Assembly (NCBI RefSeq): GCF_044324875.1
Contig: NZ_CP172188.1
DNA from: Escherichia coli
GTDB taxonomy: Bacteria > Pseudomonadota > Gammaproteobacteria > Enterobacterales > Enterobacteriaceae
Direction: 5' to 3' (one strand)
DNA: 64,000 bases
Shown here: one piece after another, positions 4,197 to 63,375 of the stretch
Layout: each line of letters opens with the position of its first letter
Numbering within the stretch: the first letter of the stretch is position 1
Program-made: the position numbers and the translations under genes
The notes under the pieces: generated by a model
The model's database searches: none
Told to the model about the DNA's origin: nothing
What the model saw: the letters and a program-made list of their open reading frames with translations, nothing else

Positions 4197-4301
4197 AATA
4201 CTGACTGTTGCGCCCTGGCATTATCGTGGGGTATATTTCTACGGCACCTTAGAAAAACGGGTGCCGGGATTGGAACCCCGGATAATGCAAAAGGCGACAC
4301 A

Positions 4302-4323
4302 GACGCCGAAAGCGTCTTTTCTT
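4302..4323 (+). terminator. rho-independent terminator candidate
   Basis: gacgc-cgaaa-gcgtc hairpin followed by ttttctt. Confidence 0.5.
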
Positions 4324-4329
4324 GTGTCA

Positions 4330-4508
4330 TGCCATCGCACAGCCATACGTAGCGTTTAGCTCAGAGATCAATGGTAGTGCTGGCTGGGCTGCCGAAAGGC
4401 AGGCCGGTTCCCTTTTGCGCCGGTAGTTCCAACCCAGTCAGTGCTACCGCCATTGAGATTGGAACCTCACGCGGTAGCTCCTTAAATTAGCAAAAGGAGG
4501 CTGCCAAT
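4330..4508 (+). promoter_or_regulatory. structured leader of antirepressor module A (differs from the leaders of modules B/C/D)
   Basis: Hairpins ctgcc-gaaa-ggcag (~4388-4401) and gttccaa...ttggaac (~4415-4458); AGGAGG before the ATG at 4509. Confidence 0.3.
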
Positions 4509-21392: not shown

Positions 21393-23054
21393 TTAACCTA
21401 ACTTCGCCCAGGTATCACGCAGCCCAACGGTGCGGTTAAATACCGGTTTTTCCGCCGTAGAATGGCGGCTATCGAGGCAGAAGTAACCTTCACGCTCAAA
21501 CTGGAATGCTTTACCCGCAACCGCATCTTTCAGCGACGGTTCAGCAAAGCCCTGTTTGATCACCAGCGATTCCGGGTTAATCACCGACAGGAAATCATCC
21601 GCAGCACCTGGGTTAGGCACGCTGAACAGACGATCGTACAGGCGGATTTCAACCGGCAGCGCATGTGCCGCGCTCACCCAGTGAATAACGCCTTTCACTT
21701 TACGACCATCTGCCGGATCTTTGCTTAAGGTGTCGGCGTCATAAGTACAGAAGATGGTGGTGATATTGCCTTCGGCATCTTTCTCCACGCGTTCAGCCTT
21801 AATGACGTAAGCATTACGCAGACGCACTTCTTTACCCAGCACCAGACGTTTGTACTGCTTGTTAGCTTCTTCGCGGAAATCGGCGCGGTCGATCCAAATC
21901 TCACCGCTAAACGGCACCTGACGGCTACCCATTTCCGGTTTGTTCGGATGGTTCGGCATGGTGACCATTTCGCCTTCGCCCTGGTAGTTTTCGATAACCA
22001 GTTTCACCGGATCGATAACCGCCATTGCGCGCGGCGCATTTTCGTTGAGATCTTCACGGATGCAGGATTCCAGCGACGCCATCTCAATGGTGTTGTCCTG
22101 CTTGGTCACGCCGATGCGTTTGCAGAACTCACGAATAGAAGCCGCAGTGTAACCACGACGACGCAGACCGGAAATGGTCGGCATACGCGGGTCATCCCAG
22201 CCTTCAACGTGTTTGTCGGTCACCAGCAGGTTCAGCTTACGCTTGGACATCACGGTGTATTCCAGATTCAGGCGCGAGAATTCGTACTGGCGCGGGTGAA
22301 CAGGAATGGTGATGTTGTCCAGCACCCAGTCGTACAGGCGACGGTTGTCCTGGAACTCAAGCGTACACAGAGAGTGCGTAATACCTTCCAGCGCATCGCT
22401 GATGCAATGGGTGAAGTCGTACATCGGGTAGATGCACCACTTGTTGCCAGTCTGGTGGTGTTCAGCAAATTTAATGCGGTACAGCACCGGATCGCGCATT
22501 ACGATAAATGGCGACGCCATGTCGATTTTCGCACGCAGGCAGGCTTTACCTTCTTCAAAACCACCGGCACGCATTTTTTCGAACAGCGCCAGGTTCTCTT
22601 CAACGCTGCGATCGCGGTACGGGCTGTTTTTACCCGGCTGCGTCAGGGTGCCGCGGTATTCGCGGATCTGTTCCGGCGTCAGTTCGTCAACATACGCCAG
22701 GCCTTTGTTGATCAGTTCAACAGCATAGGCGTGGAGCTGATCAAAATAATCGGAGGAGTAACGGATGTTGCCAGACCAGTGAAAACCTAACCATTCAACG
22801 TCGTTTTTAATCGACTCGACGTACTCGATATCTTCTTTTACCGGGTTAGTGTCGTCGAAACGCAGGTTGCACTGGCCTTTATAGTCCTGGGCGATCCCGA
22901 AGTTCAGGCAGATAGATTTCGCATGACCAATATGCAGATAGCCATTCGGTTCCGGCGGGAAACGGGTATGTACTGTGGTGTGCTTACCACTGGCCAGATC
23001 TTCATCGATGATCTGACGAATAAAGTTAGTCGGGCGGGCTTCTGCCTCACTCAT
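21393..23054 (-). CDS. glnS: glutamine--tRNA ligase (GlnRS)
   Basis: 553 aa, colinear with E. coli GlnS over the whole length as I recall it (HIGH motif, VMSKR motif); C-terminus ...WAKLG. Confidence 0.95.
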
Positions 23055-23224
23055 TGTGGATTCCTCAAAGCGTAAACAACGTATAACAGCGTATGATCTT
23101 ATAAGCCGAATAGGCTGACAACCACTAGTTGATTAGAAATTGCTTTCTATCGTTATTTCAATAATGAGCTTTTTCATTAAGCCCACTTTTGCGCATAAGT
23201 AAATTAATGACAAATGGTACACAA

Positions 23225-23289
23225 TTGGAACCAAAAAGGATGTAAAGGTGCACCAAATTAGTGGTGTATTGGTGCACCTTTGGTTCAAG
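23225..23289. promoter_or_regulatory. palindromic partition-site-like element downstream of the parA/parG operon
   Basis: TTGGAACCA ... AAAGGTGCACCAA-12 bp-TTGGTGCACCTTT ... GGTTCAAG; related 9-mers recur upstream of parA (24270-24480). Confidence 0.4.
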
Positions 23290-23322
23290 ACTTTTTAAGT
23301 TCTAAAACCAACCTGAAAGACT

Positions 23323-23610
23323 TTATTTTGCTTCCTCAGACTCCGCTAACATGAGGATAGCATGGCGGATCATATTCAATTTGCTACGATTATGCTTTTT
23401 ACTTAACGCATCAAGTACCTGGTACTCGTATTCATTGAAACCAACACGAATAGATTTAAAATCACGTGGAGCGTCCTTATCGAGCACTTTGTTGTCTTCT
23501 GGTTGCTCACCCGGCACCAAATCAGCCTTACTTGCAAAATCCTCAATTCGGCGTTCAAGATCGGGGTCTTTTACTTCGGGGGCTTTTACCGATTTACGAG
23601 GCTTAATCAC
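23323..23610 (-). CDS. small partition protein (ParG-like, second gene of the ParA operon)
   Basis: 95 aa, directly downstream of and overlapping the Walker-type parA; C-terminus ...LNMIRHAILMLAESEE consistent with a ribbon-helix-helix-type centromere binder. Confidence 0.6.
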   Translation of the reverse strand: MIKPRKSVKAPEVKDPDLERRIEDFASKADLVPGEQPEDNKVLDKDAPRDFKSIRVGFNEYEYQVLDALSKKHNRSKLNMIRHAILMLAESEEAK

Positions 23611-24244
23611 TTAATAACTCCTTAACCAACATCTGGATTTCACCTTTAGCTTTCCCGTTGTCCATCTCAACAACGCCCTTCCCTTCAGCCATGCAATCGC
23701 GGTAAACCTTACGATCACGAATGATGGTTTTCAGCAACTTCAGTTGCGGATATTCAGCCAGGTACTCTTTGGCCTCATTGGTTTCATTCACAACCGGATT
23801 GGATGGGGCCATTGTTAAGACTGCGAACGCCTTAATGCTAGGATTAGGCATCAGGTCCAAAGCCTCTTCAAACACTTCAACAAAGTGTGCCAGCGTGTCT
23901 AAATCTGGTTGAGATGGTCTGAATGGGACCAACACAATATCTGCAGCGGTTATGCCTGTACGCATCTCTTTGCTATCGCGCCCGGCTGTATCAACAACTA
24001 CAAATTCATAACGCTTATCCAGATCGAGAAGTGTTTCTCGAATATTACCAAACTTCTGGACACAATGAATTACAGGAGAAACCTCTGCCGTGTTACGGTC
24101 AGCGGCCCAGCGGGCAGCTGTTCCTTGCTTGTCTGCATCTAGTAACACTACATCCTTATTTTCGCGGGCAAGCTCCGCACAGATGTTTACGCTTGTGGTT
24201 GATTTTCCACAGCCACCTTTTTGGCTGACTACCAATATAATCAT
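23603..24244 (-). CDS. parA: ParA-family partition ATPase (small, type Ib-like)
   Basis: KGGCGKST deviant Walker A; 213 aa. Confidence 0.8.
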   Translation of the reverse strand: MIILVVSQKGGCGKSTTSVNICAELARENKDVVLLDADKQGTAARWAADRNTAEVSPVIHCVQKFGNIRETLLDLDKRYEFVVVDTAGRDSKEMRTGITAADIVLVPFRPSQPDLDTLAHFVEVFEEALDLMPNPSIKAFAVLTMAPSNPVVNETNEAKEYLAEYPQLKLLKTIIRDRKVYRDCMAEGKGVVEMDNGKAKGEIQMLVKELLSD

Positions 24245-24269
24245 ATCCGTTCCTCGGTGTTATTTTGGT

Positions 24270-24480
24270 ATCAAACTGGTTCCAAACAGAAGCCTTATTG
24301 ATGCGGTTTTGGCTCTATAGTGGAGTCATTATGCTTTGCAAAAGTATAACACTAATCATTCTAAATTTGCCCTCTGTTGCATCCTGTTTAACACGAAATC
24401 AGCACTAAATTGGAACCAGATACAAAGCAGCACCATAACAACACCGTTTTGGTACTAAAAGAGCACCAAACTAGAACCAT
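24270..24480. promoter_or_regulatory. parA upstream region with repeated TGGTTCCAA / TTGGAACCA and GCACCAAA motifs
   Basis: Short repeats shared with the element at 23225-23289. Confidence 0.35.
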
Positions 24481-24488
24481 AACGGTAT

Positions 24489-24516
24489 AAAAAAGGCTGC
24501 AAATTGCAGCCTTTGA
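24489..24516 (-). terminator. rho-independent terminator after parR
   Basis: Perfect palindrome GGCTGCAAATTGCAGCC flanked by A6 (plus) / T6 (minus). Confidence 0.55.
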
Positions 24517-24529
24517 AGATGTAGATTGG

Positions 24530-24901
24530 TTAATCAGGGAGTGAGTTTGCCAAATTCTGAGCAGAGCGGCTTTTCGGAACGCCTGGTTTTTTTACATCCT
24601 CTGAGACAGAGGTTTTTCCTTCAGTAGGTTCCCGAACTTCATGCGAAATTTCAAGAAACGAAACCAGCATTTTTCTGATCACTTCAGAGCTATTATCACC
24701 GGATAAAAGCGATGCCAACATGGGAGGTAATCTGCTATCAACCTCGCCAAGAGCGATACCTGCAAGCATCGCAGTGCGCACCATATCATTGCGATCACTT
24801 AATGGATGGGCCTCAATTTTTGCCACAGCATATTGCTCACTGGCGTAAGCGTTAAGATCTGAACGAAGATAAAACATTATTTTTCGACGTTCTTTAGACA
24901 T
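24530..24901 (-). CDS. parR: ParR/StbB-like centromere-binding protein
   Basis: 123 aa directly downstream of parM; similar in size and N-terminal character to plasmid R1 ParR. Confidence 0.6.
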   Translation of the reverse strand: MSKERRKIMFYLRSDLNAYASEQYAVAKIEAHPLSDRNDMVRTAMLAGIALGEVDSRLPPMLASLLSGDNSSEVIRKMLVSFLEISHEVREPTEGKTSVSEDVKKPGVPKSRSAQNLANSLPD

Positions 24902-24911
24902 GGCAACCTCA

Positions 24912-25871
24912 TCAACCGATAGATTTTAGACCATATACAAGAGCAAGTTGTGGATCATCAGCAACGAAAAACCTATCGTCACGAATGTTTACCTGCTCAC
25001 GGATAGCATCAGCAACAAGCGGCGCGCCGCCACCAATTACCATAACATGTGTGTATCCTTTGAAATCACTGATCACATCCAGTACGCGTGTACGGAGTCG
25101 CTCTATGCTTGACGAAATGGCTTTCTTAACATCATCAATAGCAGACGGATCGTTAATATTGTCGGTCAGATAATCCTCATCATCTCGATTAATGATTAAT
25201 TGATCGACGTTATAATTAGAGGTTTCGGTATTAGCTTTTGCAAGTGCCTGTCTGACCTCTTTAGTTACCAGCGAAACGCCGAGATTAGAATCGCCAAATA
25301 CGCGAGAAACGGCGGTCATTTGCCCGGCAACCATCGACACATCCAGAGTAGTCCCGCCAAGATCAACAATAAGCACAGAATGCGCTGGCACAAGGCTGTC
25401 GCACAGACCGATCCCTGCGGGTATTGACTCCGGGCGCACAGTCACTTTTTTGATAGTAAAAACCTGACCTTTGTTAAGGGTGACTGGTCGCATCAGGCTG
25501 GCCTTTTTCCGCTCAATATTTTTCATGTTGTATTGTGCGTCGTCGTCATAAAACTCTGCCAGTGGCAACGTGACTACTATTTCCACTTCTTGAGGCTCAA
25601 TGCCACTTGTAAGCAGGGCATGATGAACAGCAAGCACATTAAGCGGGCTGTATTGCCATTCAACGTTATTCGTTGGCAGAGCATCCGGCGAGATCAAGTC
25701 ATATGAATATTTTTCGTCATCAATGATGTAGTTAAACGTTTTTCCTGCGCCAAATGTGGCGGACCATCCACGTTTAAAACTGTTCGGGCAGATATGGGTT
25801 CGAGTTTCCCCGTCTTGTTCCCACAGCATTTTGATATTGGTAGAACCATCGTCGATAAAAATGCGCATCAT
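24912..25871 (-). CDS. parM: ParM/StbA actin-like plasmid segregation ATPase
   Basis: MMRIFIDDGSTNIKM..., WQY..NV.AVHHALLTSG, ESIPAG, IVDLGGTTLDVS, GYTHVMVIGGGA: colinear with R1 ParM as I recall it; start at MMRIF. Confidence 0.85.
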   Translation of the reverse strand: MMRIFIDDGSTNIKMLWEQDGETRTHICPNSFKRGWSATFGAGKTFNYIIDDEKYSYDLISPDALPTNNVEWQYSPLNVLAVHHALLTSGIEPQEVEIVVTLPLAEFYDDDAQYNMKNIERKKASLMRPVTLNKGQVFTIKKVTVRPESIPAGIGLCDSLVPAHSVLIVDLGGTTLDVSMVAGQMTAVSRVFGDSNLGVSLVTKEVRQALAKANTETSNYNVDQLIINRDDEDYLTDNINDPSAIDDVKKAISSSIERLRTRVLDVISDFKGYTHVMVIGGGAPLVADAIREQVNIRDDRFFVADDPQLALVYGLKSIG

Positions 25872-25964
25872 ATTGCTCCACTTCTGAGACACATTTGAGA
25901 AAGAATTGAATCTTATATGAGAAAACAAAATAAAACCAGAAGTTGAGAGAGCAAAAAGCACCAG

Positions 25965-26032
25965 ATTTGAGACAAACCAGAGACAAACCAGAGACAAACT
26001 AGAGACACACTAGAGACAAGTATGAGAAACAA
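25965..26032. repeat. parC-like centromere iterons upstream of parM
   Basis: Five to six tandem ~11-bp units GAGACAAACCA / GAGACAAACTA / GAGACACACTA / GAGACAAGTAT. Confidence 0.6.
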
Positions 26033-26090
26033 GAAATCTTAAGAGTGAAAATCACAAAGTGGAGAAGATTTAAGAAAAAGGAGGTGTTAG

Positions 26091-26375
26091 ATGAGTGCAA
26101 TAGCGACCTGTGACACAGTTTGTTCCGGTCATGGAGGATTCCCTCCGCGACCTGTAGCAGAAACAGTTTCCTGGTTTACCGTAAATGGAAAGCCAGTTGT
26201 TGTAGATGGTGCCATGTTTCCCAGTCACACTGACGGTAACAGTGCACATCCAGGGGCAGCTGTATCGACGCGAGTATGGTTTTCGATAGGTGGAAAGGGA
26301 GTTGTCTGTGTAGGCGATCCGCTTTCTTGTGGTTCTGTTATCGCCAACGGCGAGGATATTTTTCAGGTTGCATAA
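26091..26375 (+). CDS. PAAR-like spike-tip protein
   Basis: 94 aa; Cys/His/Gly-Pro pattern CDTVCSGHGGFPP...HPGAAVS...GDPLSCGSV typical of PAAR-repeat proteins; strong AAGGAGG Shine-Dalgarno. Confidence 0.55.
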   Translation: MSAIATCDTVCSGHGGFPPRPVAETVSWFTVNGKPVVVDGAMFPSHTDGNSAHPGAAVSTRVWFSIGGKGVVCVGDPLSCGSVIANGEDIFQVA

Positions 26376-27909: not shown

Positions 27910-27961
27910 TAATTTGAATTTTCGAACATAAACAATAAAATAAATCATCAAAAATTTGATG

Positions 27962-27990
27962 TTGATCTTCCATGTTTTCAGGCTTATATT
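27962..27990 (+). promoter_or_regulatory. sigma70-like promoter of module B
   Basis: TTGATC - 17 bp - TATATT; identical sequence in module D and, reverse-complemented, in module C. Confidence 0.5.
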
Positions 27991-27996
27991 CACGCC

Positions 27997-28237
27997 GTTG
28001 CAGCAAATTCTGCGACCGGGTTTAGCAGCCTGAATGTACATGCGGACAACCGCAGATATCCGATATTGCGGTATTTTTGTGTCCGTAAAACCATGTTACG
28101 CCCGAATTATGGTGGGGCGTGATGGGGAGGCTTCGGCCTGCTGGTTTCATGTACGCCAGTCTGCTAACCCCGTCACGTCCTGCCACCCGTTTAGCAGCGG
28201 GTAGCAGGTTGTTAAACCTGTACATGAGGCCGTAACT
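27997..28237 (+). ncRNA. structured leader with an embedded c4-like antisense regulator and two target sites (module B)
   Basis: Elements TTAGCAG/GTACATG at 28022-28042 and 28191-28226 (the second abuts the GAGG Shine-Dalgarno) are complementary to CATGTAC/CTGCTAA at 28148-28167; the complementarity is kept by compensatory changes in modules C and D. Confidence 0.5.
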
Positions 28238-28462
28238 ATGGTTAATGCCAATCCTTGCTCACGTCCAGAATTCATCTGGCGTTTTCACTCCCTGCAAAAA
28301 CACTGCGATCACTTCGCAATTGCCGCAACTGAAAAAGAAGCCCGTTCTCTGATCCCTGATCAGTATGGTGTTCTTACTGGTCGTTTCTCTACTTCCCCAC
28401 AACCAAACACTAATCCCTGGTATCGCAATATTACCAATCCCGGAATTGCGGAGGCACACTGA
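28238..28462 (+). CDS. small protein upstream of the antirepressor (Icd-position ORF, module B)
   Basis: 74 aa; TGATG coupling to the next gene. Confidence 0.65.
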   Translation: MVNANPCSRPEFIWRFHSLQKHCDHFAIAATEKEARSLIPDQYGVLTGRFSTSPQPNTNPWYRNITNPGIAEAH

Positions 28463-29382
28463 TGGATATCTGCATTCTTGAAAAGCCATCAATGACCAGC
28501 ATTGAGATCGCGGAGCTGGTGGGAAGTCGTCCAGATAACGTAAAAATATCAATAGAGCGCCTGGCTAAATCTGGAGTTATTCAACTTCCTGCATTGCAGG
28601 TTTTCGAAAAAATCAATAACTTAGGACTACGCCGTAGTGTCGAGGCTTACGTCTTCGAAGGCGAGCAAGGCAAACGAGACAGCATTATTGTCGTTGCGCA
28701 GCTCTCTCCCGAATTCACCGCCCGGCTGGTGGACCGCTGGCGCGAACTGGAAGAACAAGTACGCCAGCCGTTGACCGAAATAGAGATGATCGCCGCAATG
28801 GCTGCAAATGCAGTTCAGCAGCAAAAGCGGCTTCATGTTGTTGAGTCAAAGGTTAGCCAGGTTGCTGAAACCGTCGAGCAGATCAAGAAGGGCAACATGC
28901 CAGAAGGTTACATTGGCTACCGCCAGCTGGCGGCGAAATGTGGCCTGACTGAAGCCAAATGTCGCAACCTGGTTAACGCTTTCCGGATTCCCACCGATAC
29001 GCATGAGTTTTTAACTCCAGATGGTTTGCTTGCGCGACGCTCCATTGTGGCCCTGGCCCCCTTCCGGAAAGCCTTTAAGCAGGTGATGTCGGAGGCAGAA
29101 CCACGCAACAAACGCTGGTATCATCCGAAGATGGGGCTGTTTCAGGCAATCCATCATCCTGTGCCTGAAAGCCCAAAGGATAATCTGTCACTACATACCG
29201 TCAGAGAGAAGATCAGGACTGGATACGCAACAGTGTGTCGTCGTTCTTCCTGGCCTGAAGGTATATGGGTGTGGCCCGAAGGTGGATCACGAAAGCACTG
29301 GCGCACTATCCGGGACGGGAAAATCCATGCTATTGATTTAGCGCCAGAGGATATTGTTGCTACGGACTGGATTGTTAGTTAA
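28462..29382 (+). CDS. phage antirepressor-type protein (Rha-like N-domain), module B
   Basis: 306 aa; N-terminus ...MTSIEIAELVGSRPDNVKISIERL...; conserved C-terminal domain. Confidence 0.65.
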   Translation: MDICILEKPSMTSIEIAELVGSRPDNVKISIERLAKSGVIQLPALQVFEKINNLGLRRSVEAYVFEGEQGKRDSIIVVAQLSPEFTARLVDRWRELEEQVRQPLTEIEMIAAMAANAVQQQKRLHVVESKVSQVAETVEQIKKGNMPEGYIGYRQLAAKCGLTEAKCRNLVNAFRIPTDTHEFLTPDGLLARRSIVALAPFRKAFKQVMSEAEPRNKRWYHPKMGLFQAIHHPVPESPKDNLSLHTVREKIRTGYATVCRRSSWPEGIWVWPEGGSRKHWRTIRDGKIHAIDLAPEDIVATDWIVS

Positions 29383-37081: not shown

Positions 37082-37083
37082 AA

Positions 37084-37106
37084 AGCCCCGGACAGGCCGG
37101 GGCAAC
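37084..37106. terminator. conserved hairpin / bidirectional terminator (shared by the structural operon and module C)
   Basis: ccccgg-acagg-ccgggg between convergent genes. Confidence 0.5.
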
Positions 37107-37111
37107 AGTAA

Positions 37112-38110
37112 TTAACTAACAATCCAGTCCATAGCAATAACATCCTCTGGAGCTAAATCAATAGCATGGATTTTCCCGTCACGGATGGTGCGCCAGTGCT
37201 TTCGTGATCCACCTTCGGGCCATACCCATACACCTTCAGGCCAGGAAGAACGACGACACACTGTTGCGTATCCAGTCCTGATCTTCTCTCTGACGGTATG
37301 CAGTGACAGATTATCTTTTGGGATTTCCGGTAAAGGATGATGGATTGCCTGAAACAGCCCCATCTTCGGATGATACCAGCGTTTGTTGCGTGGTTCTGCC
37401 TCCGACATAACCTGCTTGAAGGCTTTCCGGAAGGGGGCCAGGGCCACAATGGAGCGTCGGGCAAGCAAACCATCTGGAGTTAAAAACTCATGCGTATCGG
37501 TGGGAATCCGGTAAGCGTTGACAAGGTTGCGGCATTTGGCTTCAGTCAGGCCACATTTCGCCGCCAGCTGGCGGTAGCCAATGTAGCCTTCCGGCATATT
37601 GCCTTTCTTGATTTGCTCGACGGTTTCAGCGACTTTGGACACTTGTGCCGATACCTCGGCTACCTGGGCATTTACGGCGTTAATCCGGCGTTCATGTTCA
37701 AGATGCATTTGCGCCATTTCAGCCAGGATTTCGGCTTTTGATTTTAGCGGTGAGTGCTCCGGTATTAATTGCTTAATACGAAAATAGCTGTTTACCAGCT
37801 CACGTTGCACTTGCCAGGCCAGATCGTCATTGAATGACTTAACAATCATTAGATAACCGGACTCAGTGAACACGCGCAAACCGCGCGGGGGGACATTAAT
37901 TCCAAAAGTGTCAAAAACGCCCTTTTCAGAGTAATCAATAAGATAGGTATCTACACCATCAACAAAACGGTGCTTGTTACGATGGAAAGTTGTTTTAGCT
38001 AATCCTTTTGGTCGCTCGTGCACCTCATCAATCATCTCAAAGGTCACTACACGCTGATTTTTATATTCGAGAGTCGGGAATGGTTTGTTATTGATAGTTA
38101 CTGCGTCCAT
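37112..38110 (-). CDS. phage antirepressor-type protein with a KilA-N/ORF6N-like N-domain, module C
   Basis: Start at MDAVTINNKPFPTLEYKNQRVVTFEMIDEVHERPKG... (TAATG coupling with the upstream small ORF); C-terminal ~180 aa nearly identical to modules A and B; the ORF track extends to 38197. Confidence 0.6.
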   Translation of the reverse strand: MDAVTINNKPFPTLEYKNQRVVTFEMIDEVHERPKGLAKTTFHRNKHRFVDGVDTYLIDYSEKGVFDTFGINVPPRGLRVFTESGYLMIVKSFNDDLAWQVQRELVNSYFRIKQLIPEHSPLKSKAEILAEMAQMHLEHERRINAVNAQVAEVSAQVSKVAETVEQIKKGNMPEGYIGYRQLAAKCGLTEAKCRNLVNAYRIPTDTHEFLTPDGLLARRSIVALAPFRKAFKQVMSEAEPRNKRWYHPKMGLFQAIHHPLPEIPKDNLSLHTVREKIRTGYATVCRRSSWPEGVWVWPEGGSRKHWRTIRDGKIHAIDLAPEDVIAMDWIVS

Positions 38111-38325
38111 TAATGCACCTCCACGCAGTTCATTGGGCGGTTCCAGTAGGTCAAAACGTCCAGGGCATCGAGTTTGAAGCGAGCCGCAAAAATGCACGGA
38201 TCTGTAGGAAGAAATGAACGCGCTTCAGCCTCAGTAGCTGCCATTACGGTGATATAGGTGTGTTTTGTGCAGGAATAAAAGCGCCAGATGAATTCTGGAC
38301 GTGAGCAAGGATTGGCATTAACCAT
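38110..38325 (-). CDS. small protein upstream of the antirepressor (Icd-position ORF, module C)
   Basis: 71 aa; paralogue of 4509-4724. Confidence 0.65.
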   Translation of the reverse strand: MVNANPCSRPEFIWRFYSCTKHTYITVMAATEAEARSFLPTDPCIFAARFKLDALDVLTYWNRPMNCVEVH

Positions 38326-38566
38326 AGTTACGGCCTCATGTACAGGTTTAACAACCTGCTACCCGCTGTCAAACAGGTGGCAGGGCGTGACAGGGTTGAC
38401 AGACTGGCGTACATGAAACCAGCAGGCCGAAGCCTCCCCATCACGCCCCACCATAATTCGGGCGTAACGTGGTTTACGGACACAAAAATACCGCAATATC
38501 GGAAATCTGCGGATGTCCGCATGTACATTCAGGCTGTCAAACCTGGTCGCAGAATTTGCTACGACG
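38326..38566 (-). ncRNA. structured leader with a c4-like antisense regulator (module C)
   Basis: Minus-strand elements TTGACAG/GTACATG (targets) and CATGTAC/CTGTCAA (antisense) in the same arrangement as module B. Confidence 0.5.
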
Positions 38567-38571
38567 GCGTG

Positions 38572-38600
38572 AATATAAGCCTGAACATCTGGAAGATCAA
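38572..38600 (-). promoter_or_regulatory. sigma70-like promoter of module C
   Basis: Reverse complement of TTGATC-17-TATATT. Confidence 0.5.
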
Positions 38601-38653
38601 CATCAAATTGTTGATGATTTATTTTATTATTCATGTTTGAAAATTCAAATTAT

Positions 38654-63100: not shown

Positions 63101-63129
63101 TTGATCTTCCATGTTTTCAGGCTTATATT
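63101..63129 (+). promoter_or_regulatory. sigma70-like promoter of module D
   Basis: TTGATC-17-TATATT, identical to module B. Confidence 0.5.
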
Positions 63130-63135
63130 CATGCC

Positions 63136-63375
63136 GTCGTAGCAAATTCTGCGACCAGGTTTGACAGCCTGAATGTTAGTGCGGACAACCGCAGATTTCC
63201 GATATTGCGGTATTTTTGTGTCCGTAAACCGCGTTACGCCCGAATTATGGTGGGGCGTGATGGGGAGGCTTCGGCCTGCTGGTTTCACTAACGCCAGTCT
63301 GTCAACCCTGTCACGTCCTGCCACCTGTTTGACAGCGGGTAGCAGGTTGTTAAACCTGTTAGTGAGGCCGTAACT
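63136..63375 (+). ncRNA. structured leader with a c4-like antisense regulator (module D)
   Basis: TTGACAG/GTTAGTG at 63161-63181 and 63329-63364; complementary CACTAAC/CTGTCAA at 63286-63305. Confidence 0.5.

Follow-up and report, generated by a model that had tools for sequence, protein, structure and literature searches.

Can a phage-plasmid that carries two partition cassettes of unrelated types side by side use both of them to segregate, and how would such an arrangement have come about? We address this for a locus at 23212–26034 in a 64,000-nucleotide stretch of Escherichia coli DNA (contig NZ_CP172188.1; the whole stretch is referred to here as the window). An earlier note on this DNA, made from the sequence alone, had placed a type I pair (ParA and a ParG-like protein) directly beside a type II pair (ParM and ParR) with candidate centromeres, and each of these elements lies at or near where it had been put. 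We conclude that this is probably the segregation locus of a D6-like, P1-related phage-plasmid, composed of two independent partition cassettes in tandem: an R1-type ParMRC system and a type Ib system with a predicted ribbon-helix-helix partner.

By sequence, the window is a relative of the P1-related phage-plasmid D6 (NC_050154), with which 51.4 of its 64 kb are collinear, mostly at 90–99% identity (local BLAST). The 3-kb par region also matches D6 and 122 PLSDB plasmids of about 90 kb each from Escherichia, Salmonella and Shigella, and both cassettes are present across this D6 group (~120 plasmids). A survey of 5,426 complete E. coli genomes places the region at 106 plasmid sites and on plasmid records only; the chromosomal matches (95–99% identity) are to the adjacent glutaminyl-tRNA synthetase gene, glnS, and not to the par genes. 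Together with the collinearity, this bears out plasmid-style maintenance, as the earlier note had proposed. Integration into the chromosome, suspected from that glnS neighbour, was rejected: both ends of the window align to D6, which has the same glnS beside the same genes, so the gene is no sign of chromosomal DNA.

All of the relevant genes between 23212 and 26034 are on the minus strand, in the order parC, parM, parR, terminator, upstream array, parA, a gene for a 95-residue protein, downstream array. Non-coding DNA extends for 285 bp ahead of parA and for 268 bp between the 95-residue gene and glnS. None of the four par genes contains an internal stop or a frameshift.

The type II cassette and its bipartite repeat region

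The first cassette (24530–26034) is, judged from its sequence, an R1-type ParMRC, with ParM, ParR and a repeat-bearing parC all present. parM (24912–25868, minus strand) encodes a 318-residue actin-like segregation ATPase that matches Pfam StbA_N (7.6e-69) and the ParM C-terminal domain (1.2e-55), and aligns over its full length to structures of R1 ParM (E ~1e-111). Its start is most likely the ATG at 25868, in agreement with relatives, which are annotated at 318 residues; a 361-residue open reading frame from a TTG start was rejected on this ground and because it reads through the iterons. parR (24530–24901, minus strand) begins 10 nt after parM and encodes a 123-residue predicted centromere-binding adaptor, matching Plasmid_stab_B (PF10784, 4.3e-13) and the structure of pB171 ParR (2jd3, E 3.9e-7).

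Ahead of parM, five to six 11-bp iterons had been proposed. Tandem Repeats Finder reports 4.6 copies of period 11 at 25969–26019 (92% matches), and by eye six direct units continue to 26034. These units form the distal half of parC (25969–26034, minus strand), with the pattern nnnTTGTCTCn in gene sense and GAGACAAACCA on the plus strand. Read in gene sense from 26034 to 25969, the six are TCTTGTTTCTC, ATACTTGTCTC, TAGTGTGTCTC, TAGTTTGTCTC and two copies of TGGTTTGTCTC. The cluster has an autocorrelation of 0.76–0.77 at lags 11 and 22, and in-register matches to GAGACAAACCA with two or fewer mismatches (four in number) are found solely within it. Missed by the earlier note were four further in-register 11-bp units at 25886–25929 (minus strand), the proximal half, 39 bp from the distal six; three of these end in TCTC and one is degenerate. 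The innermost proximal unit, AAATGTGTCTC, is kept in all E. coli-group relatives. In the two relatives nearest in ParR allele, plasmids pEC361_3 (locus L002) and pMUB-MIN14-1, the distal cluster is split into 3 + 3 units by an insert of about 30 bp, GGGTATCATGGGTACATCATGTATCATCTAA, which has short ATCATG repeats of its own; the window has an unbroken run of six units.

R1 parC spans 159 bp; its 11-bp iterons are grouped five and five around a 39-bp gap that holds the promoter, with about one ParR dimer to each iteron (PMC2241845). The window thus shares the anatomy of R1 parC, upstream of parM as in R1, with 6 + 39 bp + 4 against 5 + 39 bp + 5 and one degenerate proximal unit. The window spacer (25930–25968, minus strand; length read from the sequence) is presumed to be the site of the parMR promoter by analogy with R1 only. 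The two loci differ in iteron sequence, in that the spacer promoter of the window is not recognisable by consensus, and in that the PDB match of the window ParR is to pB171 ParR only. The window ParMRC is closer to R1 than to pB171.

An intrinsic terminator follows parR (24486–24514, minus strand), formed by a 10-bp stem, a 3-nt loop and a U6 tract. The consensus scan missed it and folding confirmed it (−14.5 kcal/mol, z-score −5.4), and the hairpin GGCTGCAA(A)TTGCAGCC followed by T6 is kept in all five of the relatives compared.

The ParA cassette, its 95-residue partner and the flanking arrays

parA (23603–24244, minus strand) encodes a small Walker-type ATPase of 213 residues. A deviant Walker A motif, SQKGGCGKST, stands right at the start of the protein, with KGGCGKS from residue 9 onward, so that there is no N-terminal DNA-binding domain. 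The family that fits it best is NCBIfam ParA_partition (NF041546, 203 positions), aligned over the full length at 162.8 bits (E 7e-48) against a curated cut-off of 180 bits; the next-best NCBIfam family is VirC1, at 52.7 bits. The best structural matches are to TP228 ParF (E 1.5e-18), likewise aligned from end to end. Over its full length, the protein is 43% identical to ParA of a pB171-type par2 locus (E 5e-59, 172 bits); this locus was retrieved through a ParR fragment aligned to PDB entry 2jd3.

The 95-residue gene (23323–23610, minus strand) has a GTG start and overlaps parA by 8 nt. Its product has no match in Pfam (E ≤10), NCBIfam or the PDB by sequence, and ParG in the PDB is not matched by either the single sequence or the family profile; there is a weak Arc-like PHROG match over residues 53–94. 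A word-indexed homologue search retrieved close relatives only; an exhaustive search of representatives gave a family of 101 cluster representatives, nearly all of 65–100 residues. Their alignment has an N-terminal MVKxR in which R5 is nearly invariant, an IExFA motif and a C-terminal block, KxIxVPFNEYEYxxLE...GRSKLNxIRxA. Family members match ribbon-helix-helix families of Pfam at E ≤0.1: NikA-like (16 of 61), RHH_1 (14 of 61) and DUF6290 (11 of 61).

An AlphaFold2 model of the 95-residue protein, built on the family alignment (predicted local distance difference test score 88.5) has helices at 16–29, 60–73 and 77–94, with an extended segment after the first helix. The top Foldseek matches are all ribbon-helix-helix proteins—CopA_SO, ParG (1p94), TacA, CopG and Arc—aligned with root mean square deviations of 1.2–1.6 Å over 40–43 residues, ParG being ranked third (E 0.42). 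The model thus predicts an N-terminal tail and a C-terminal ribbon-helix-helix domain. The N-terminal tail contains a VKAPE/VKDPD repeat, the product of a 15-nt tandem duplication inside the gene (23561–23589; Tandem Repeats Finder score 51).

At each of the loci inspected, a gene for a ParA of about 210 residues comes directly before that of the 95-residue family. These loci include D6-like plasmids, a conjugative Serratia plasmid, Acinetobacter pACICU1 (next to repM) and metagenomic contigs, one of which is a Rep3–ParA–ribbon-helix-helix–PemK plasmid fragment. We predict that the 95-residue protein is the centromere-binding partner of ParA. The label 'ParG-like' given to it earlier fits its architecture, a flexible tail plus ribbon-helix-helix, and its position; as to family, its sequence falls outside ParG (Pfam PF09274) and every other Pfam entry. 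Sequence comparison led us to reject homology between this family and pB171 ParB (BLASTP E 0.14), the family profile giving an hhalign E of 0.074 with the first 26 residues alone aligned.

The repeats that the earlier note had seen flanking the type I pair are there, and they belong to two degenerate arrays of 11-bp units that it had not recognised. The upstream array (24400–24487), a candidate centromere and operator, comprises about six to seven units with a TGGTNC core in gene sense (nnnnTGGTGCn read from 24487 to 24400, for example GTTATGGTTCT, AGTTTGGTGCT and GTTATGGTGCT). The downstream array (23212–23291), a candidate second centromere, comprises seven units with a GNACCA core (nnnGNACCAnn read from 23291 to 23212, for example GTCTTGAACCA, AAGGTGCACCA and ATTGTGTACCA), so that the two arrays are mutually inverted. 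Inside the downstream array is a perfect 13-bp inverted repeat, AAAGGTGCACCAA/TTGGTGCACCTTT, at 23244–23256 and 23269–23281. Exact TTGGAACCA occurs four times in the 64 kb, three of them flanking the parA operon (23225, 24277 on the minus strand, and 24410). A 51-residue open reading frame over the downstream array (23133–23288) was set aside as spurious.

Between the upstream array and parA, the motif TGnTATACT (24343–24351, minus strand) is likely to be the extended −10 element of parA, as judged from its conservation, and was not listed by the consensus scan. It is kept in five of five relatives, where TGTTATACT/TGCTATACT holds this position within surrounding sequence that has diverged. 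Two further motif copies, TTGGTATCAA and TGGTTCCAA (24265–24285), sit between this putative promoter and the parA ribosome-binding site, in an operator-like position. The placement of TGnTATACT between the upstream array and these two copies suggests autoregulation, as in other type Ib systems.

The hexamer TGGTNC/GNACCA has 117 occurrences in the 64 kb and reaches five per 90 bp solely in the two flanks of the parA operon (0.16 expected; Poisson p 9e-11 for the flanks), the next-best 90-bp interval holding two; across 100 shuffles the maximum was four. In both arrays, lag 11 is the strongest autocorrelation lag (upstream 0.49, p = 0.001; downstream 0.48, p < 0.001). Because the hexamer was defined on the window, independent loci weigh most. 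Lag 11 is first or second strongest in the matching flanks of pEC361_3, W444, a Shigella plasmid and a Serratia plasmid. The hexamer is enriched in the operon flanks of loci L002–L005 and L013 (in the last, the protein is ~32% identical), and is also found beside 95-residue homologues of 32–50% identity. The downstream region of the pEC361_3 type cannot be aligned to that of the window and still bears a hexamer array, followed by a terminator; motif content kept without sequence homology is what a binding-site array predicts. In the transcript, the downstream inverted repeat of the window folds into a hairpin (−24.8 kcal/mol, z-score −4.7), which may help to end transcription of the operon in place of the canonical terminator that other relatives have and the window does not. 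By analogy, both arrays are candidate centromeres of the type Ib system, resembling parC1 and parC2 of pB171 par2.

Known counterparts, allele exchange and competing readings

A dual type Ib and type II locus is a known kind of system, long known from pB171, whose double par locus also sets one type II (par1) and one type Ib (par2) cassette side by side. Both systems of the pB171 double locus were reportedly described as active by Ebersbach and Gerdes in 2001. Beyond ParA, the pB171-type locus is 42% identical to the window in ParM and 31% in ParR. The repeat sequences differ, and the centromere-binding proteins of the type Ib cassettes are not detectably homologous. The pB171 cassettes are divergent around a shared central parC1 region, whereas those of the window are in tandem with a terminator between them, making cross-talk through a shared operator unlikely. 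Constructs of pB171 par2 carrying parC1 and parC2 have been described (PMC4270457), and at locus L007 the operon has visible repeats on either side. The combination of a type I ribbon-helix-helix system with a type II system has been recorded in 971 PLSDB plasmids, with earlier reports cited (PMC13245405).

TP228 ParF/ParG/parH shares with the window a small ParA-type ATPase and a small partner with a tail and a ribbon-helix-helix domain. Its centromere is described as an array of short degenerate boxes that is also the operator (PMC3130281). TP228 has tetramer boxes with AT-rich spacers at one upstream site, compared with 11-bp units with a hexamer core in two flanking arrays in the window. 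The parABS system of P1 plays the same role as the loci of the window, segregating a low-copy plasmid prophage. It is of type Ia, with a large ParA bearing an N-terminal DNA-binding domain, a helix-turn-helix ParB, and parS. The window has neither a P1-type ParA nor ParB/parS, and carries the type Ib and type II cassettes instead; the D6 record notes a similarity of its ParA-like protein to the C-terminal third of P1 ParA.

D6 itself has the same gene order at orf58–orf61 as the window (PAAR gene, parM, parR, parA, 95-residue gene, glnS). Its ParA is 100% identical, its 95-residue protein is identical in amino acids and its downstream array is essentially identical. It differs in the ParR allele and in the iterons (TTCTCA in D6, GTCTCT in the window). 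The D6 record labels orf58 and orf59 'partition protein', orf60 'ParA-like partition protein' with a 'possible ParA partitioning function', the assignment carrying a question mark, and orf61 'hypothetical'; a Salmonella study of D6-like plasmids lists the partition system as 'cop, parA, stbB and parM' (PMC6799933).

The favoured reading, of two independent cassettes, would work as follows. ParR dimers would coat the 6 + 4 iteron clusters on either side of the 39-bp, presumably promoter-containing spacer; bound to parC, ParR would repress the operon and form a complex capping growing actin-like ParM filaments, which would push sister plasmids apart. The type Ib cassette would be transcribed separately, after the terminator. 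Its 95-residue ribbon-helix-helix protein would bind the degenerate TGGTNC/GNACCA arrays, the one around the parA promoter serving autoregulation as well as centromere function and the second lying just downstream of the operon. The basic, conserved N-terminal tail would stimulate the ATPase of nucleoid-bound ParA, and a ParA gradient would thereby set the position of the plasmid, as for pB171 par2. Since the two systems use unrelated proteins and sites, they could coexist and add to the stabilisation of a low-copy prophage.

Selection was gauged from pairwise ratios of non-synonymous to synonymous substitution (dN/dS) against relatives. These are 0.02–0.04 for parM, 0.02–0.03 for parA and 0.07–0.08 for the 95-residue gene, which indicates strong purifying selection on all three; parR alone departs from this, with 0.72 against its closest allele. 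The values bear on the rival that holds up best, namely that a single cassette, most likely ParMRC, does the segregating and that the ParA–ribbon-helix-helix pair with its arrays is mainly an autoregulated accessory. Such an accessory might act as a redundant backup for certain hosts, determine incompatibility with related plasmids or their exclusion, or regulate the glnS or terminator region next to it. In keeping with it, just one of the two systems of the dual-ParABS plasmid SCP1 mattered under laboratory conditions (PMC13245405), the question mark of the D6 authors stands on ParA, and the downstream array lies directly upstream of glnS in both the window and D6. Against this, purifying selection on parA and the 95-residue gene is as strong as on parM, elsewhere the pair is the sole recognisable par module, beside replication genes, and both halves of the pB171 double locus are reportedly active. 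We regard this rival as unlikely.

Comparison of alleles bears on how the cassettes came to be adjacent. The window ParR allele is rare: seven PLSDB plasmids carry one at 80–90% identity (best 86%) and none a closer one, and identity to the common D6-type ParR is 56–60%. The closest ParMRC allele belongs to a minority lineage, pEC361_3 and pMUB-MIN14-1 (ParR 84–86% identical), both of which are without glnS. Against D6, parR and the iterons of the window have no BLAST match, parM is 80% identical with synonymous sites saturated, and the flanks are 96–98% identical. Iteron core and ParR allele vary together: GTCTCT accompanies the window-type ParR in three loci (window, pEC361_3 and pMUB-MIN14-1) and TTCTCA the D6-type ParR in three others (D6, W444 and Shigella 93-119). 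When ParMRC types are numbered and ParA–ribbon-helix-helix types lettered, the window and pEC361_3 are 1/a, D6 is 2/a, and W444 and the Shigella plasmid are 2/b; the type Ib cassette therefore assorts independently of ParMRC.

That the ParR/parC allele differs from that of D6 points to replacement of a cassette by recombination rather than to a cointegrate. The earlier note had raised a cointegrate history, in which the fusion of two replicons brought the cassettes together. The cassettes are indeed of unrelated types, and their nearest characterised relatives do not share a plasmid: for ParM and the layout of parC it is R1, for ParA it is pB171 par2. Yet D6 annotates a single plasmid replicon (a Rep_3-type repA), far from the par locus; any acquisition would predate the D6 group, throughout which both cassettes occur; the observed differences come down to alleles replaced, by recombination, in single cassettes, with parR/parC unalignable between well-matched flanks; and neighbouring type Ib and type II loci are found as one unit in another setting. 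No fusion needs to be invoked, and we consider one improbable.

Weakest of all, and very improbable, is that the ATPase and the ribbon-helix-helix protein form a VirC1/VirC2-like or relaxosome-accessory-like pair for DNA processing or transfer: beyond the secondary NCBIfam score, ParA matches VirC1 in Pfam (2.2e-12) and some members of the 95-residue family match NikA-like and TraY ribbon-helix-helix families, but the partition ATPase matches (ParA_partition and the pB171-type ParA) are far stronger, the NikA and TraY matches reflect the shared fold only, 120 of the 122 D6-like plasmids are predicted to be non-mobilizable and no relaxase is annotated in D6.

Several points count against the reading of two independent cassettes. 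Binding, ATPase stimulation, promoter positions and stabilisation are inferred from homology and comparative anatomy. The consensus scan gave no convincing promoter for either operon and no strong sigma-70 match in the 39-bp spacer. ParA stays under the curated cut-off of its best family. The 95-residue protein is without significant sequence similarity to ParG, pB171 ParB or any solved structure, and its fold-search E-values are weak (0.2–1), the domain being small. Definition of the hexamer on the window makes its enrichment there partly circular, the strict pattern is not enriched in two relatives (L006 and L010), and the pairing of iteron core with ParR allele extends over two allele classes only.

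On the reading of two cassettes, the new content is modest: a role for a 'hypothetical' gene, the bipartite 11-bp arrays and the allele exchange. We tentatively propose, as a joint claim that may well not hold in full, that the 95-residue protein defines an unnamed, widespread family of type Ib centromere-binding proteins and that the par cassettes of D6-like elements are independently exchangeable specificity modules. Neither Pfam nor NCBIfam lists this family, which at 50% identity forms about 100 clusters and occurs on plasmids of Enterobacterales, Aeromonas and Acinetobacter. From its sequences, it may combine an ATPase-activating MVKxR tail with recognition of two inverted, TGGTNC-core 11-bp arrays that bracket the operon. 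The exchangeable modules may be read from three combinations in five elements and from the fast evolution of ParR (dN/dS 0.72 against 0.02–0.08).

If this is true, the alleles of ParR/parC and of the ribbon-helix-helix protein and its arrays would set the incompatibility groups that decide which related phage-plasmids co-reside in a cell. E. coli and Salmonella commonly harbour phage-plasmids of the P1/D6 group, whose cargo includes resistance genes; the stable inheritance and coexistence of these elements depend on such loci. The analysis gives a map of the candidate centromeres of both systems, a predicted function for a gene annotated everywhere as 'hypothetical', and evidence that elements which are near-identical in other respects exchange a ParR/parC specificity module. 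The accepted view of plasmid partition stands unchanged.

Neighbouring genes and other features of the window

Directly downstream of the type Ib cassette is glnS (21393–23054, minus strand), a full-length glutaminyl-tRNA synthetase gene 95–99% identical to chromosomal E. coli glnS, which also adjoins the same genes in D6. The gene seems to have been captured recently from a host, upstream region included. In relatives of the pEC361_3 type, which are without it, a Dam methylase gene comes after the 95-residue gene. On the other side of the locus, a PAAR-domain gene (26091–26375, plus strand; P1 upfC-like in D6) is divergent from parM and starts about 55 bp past the last iteron.

The 64 kb also contain four C4 antisense RNA genes (Rfam RF01695, 69–77 bits), at 4367–4454, 28105–28190 and 63243–63328 on the plus strand and at 38373–38458 on the minus strand. 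Three of the four have a1/b1 target elements (c4-a1b1 targets at 27984–28036, 38526–38578 on the minus strand, and 63123–63175). D6 annotates two icd/ant immunity modules, and the segments at 27951–29146 and 37082–38601 look like two extra copies (~90% identical) of D6 icd/ant segments, in inverted orientation around the capsid/sheath block. A match to the Hfq-binding small RNA isrK (Rfam, 59.4 bits; gathering score 50) lies at 4244–4322 (plus strand), closely preceding one of the C4 genes.

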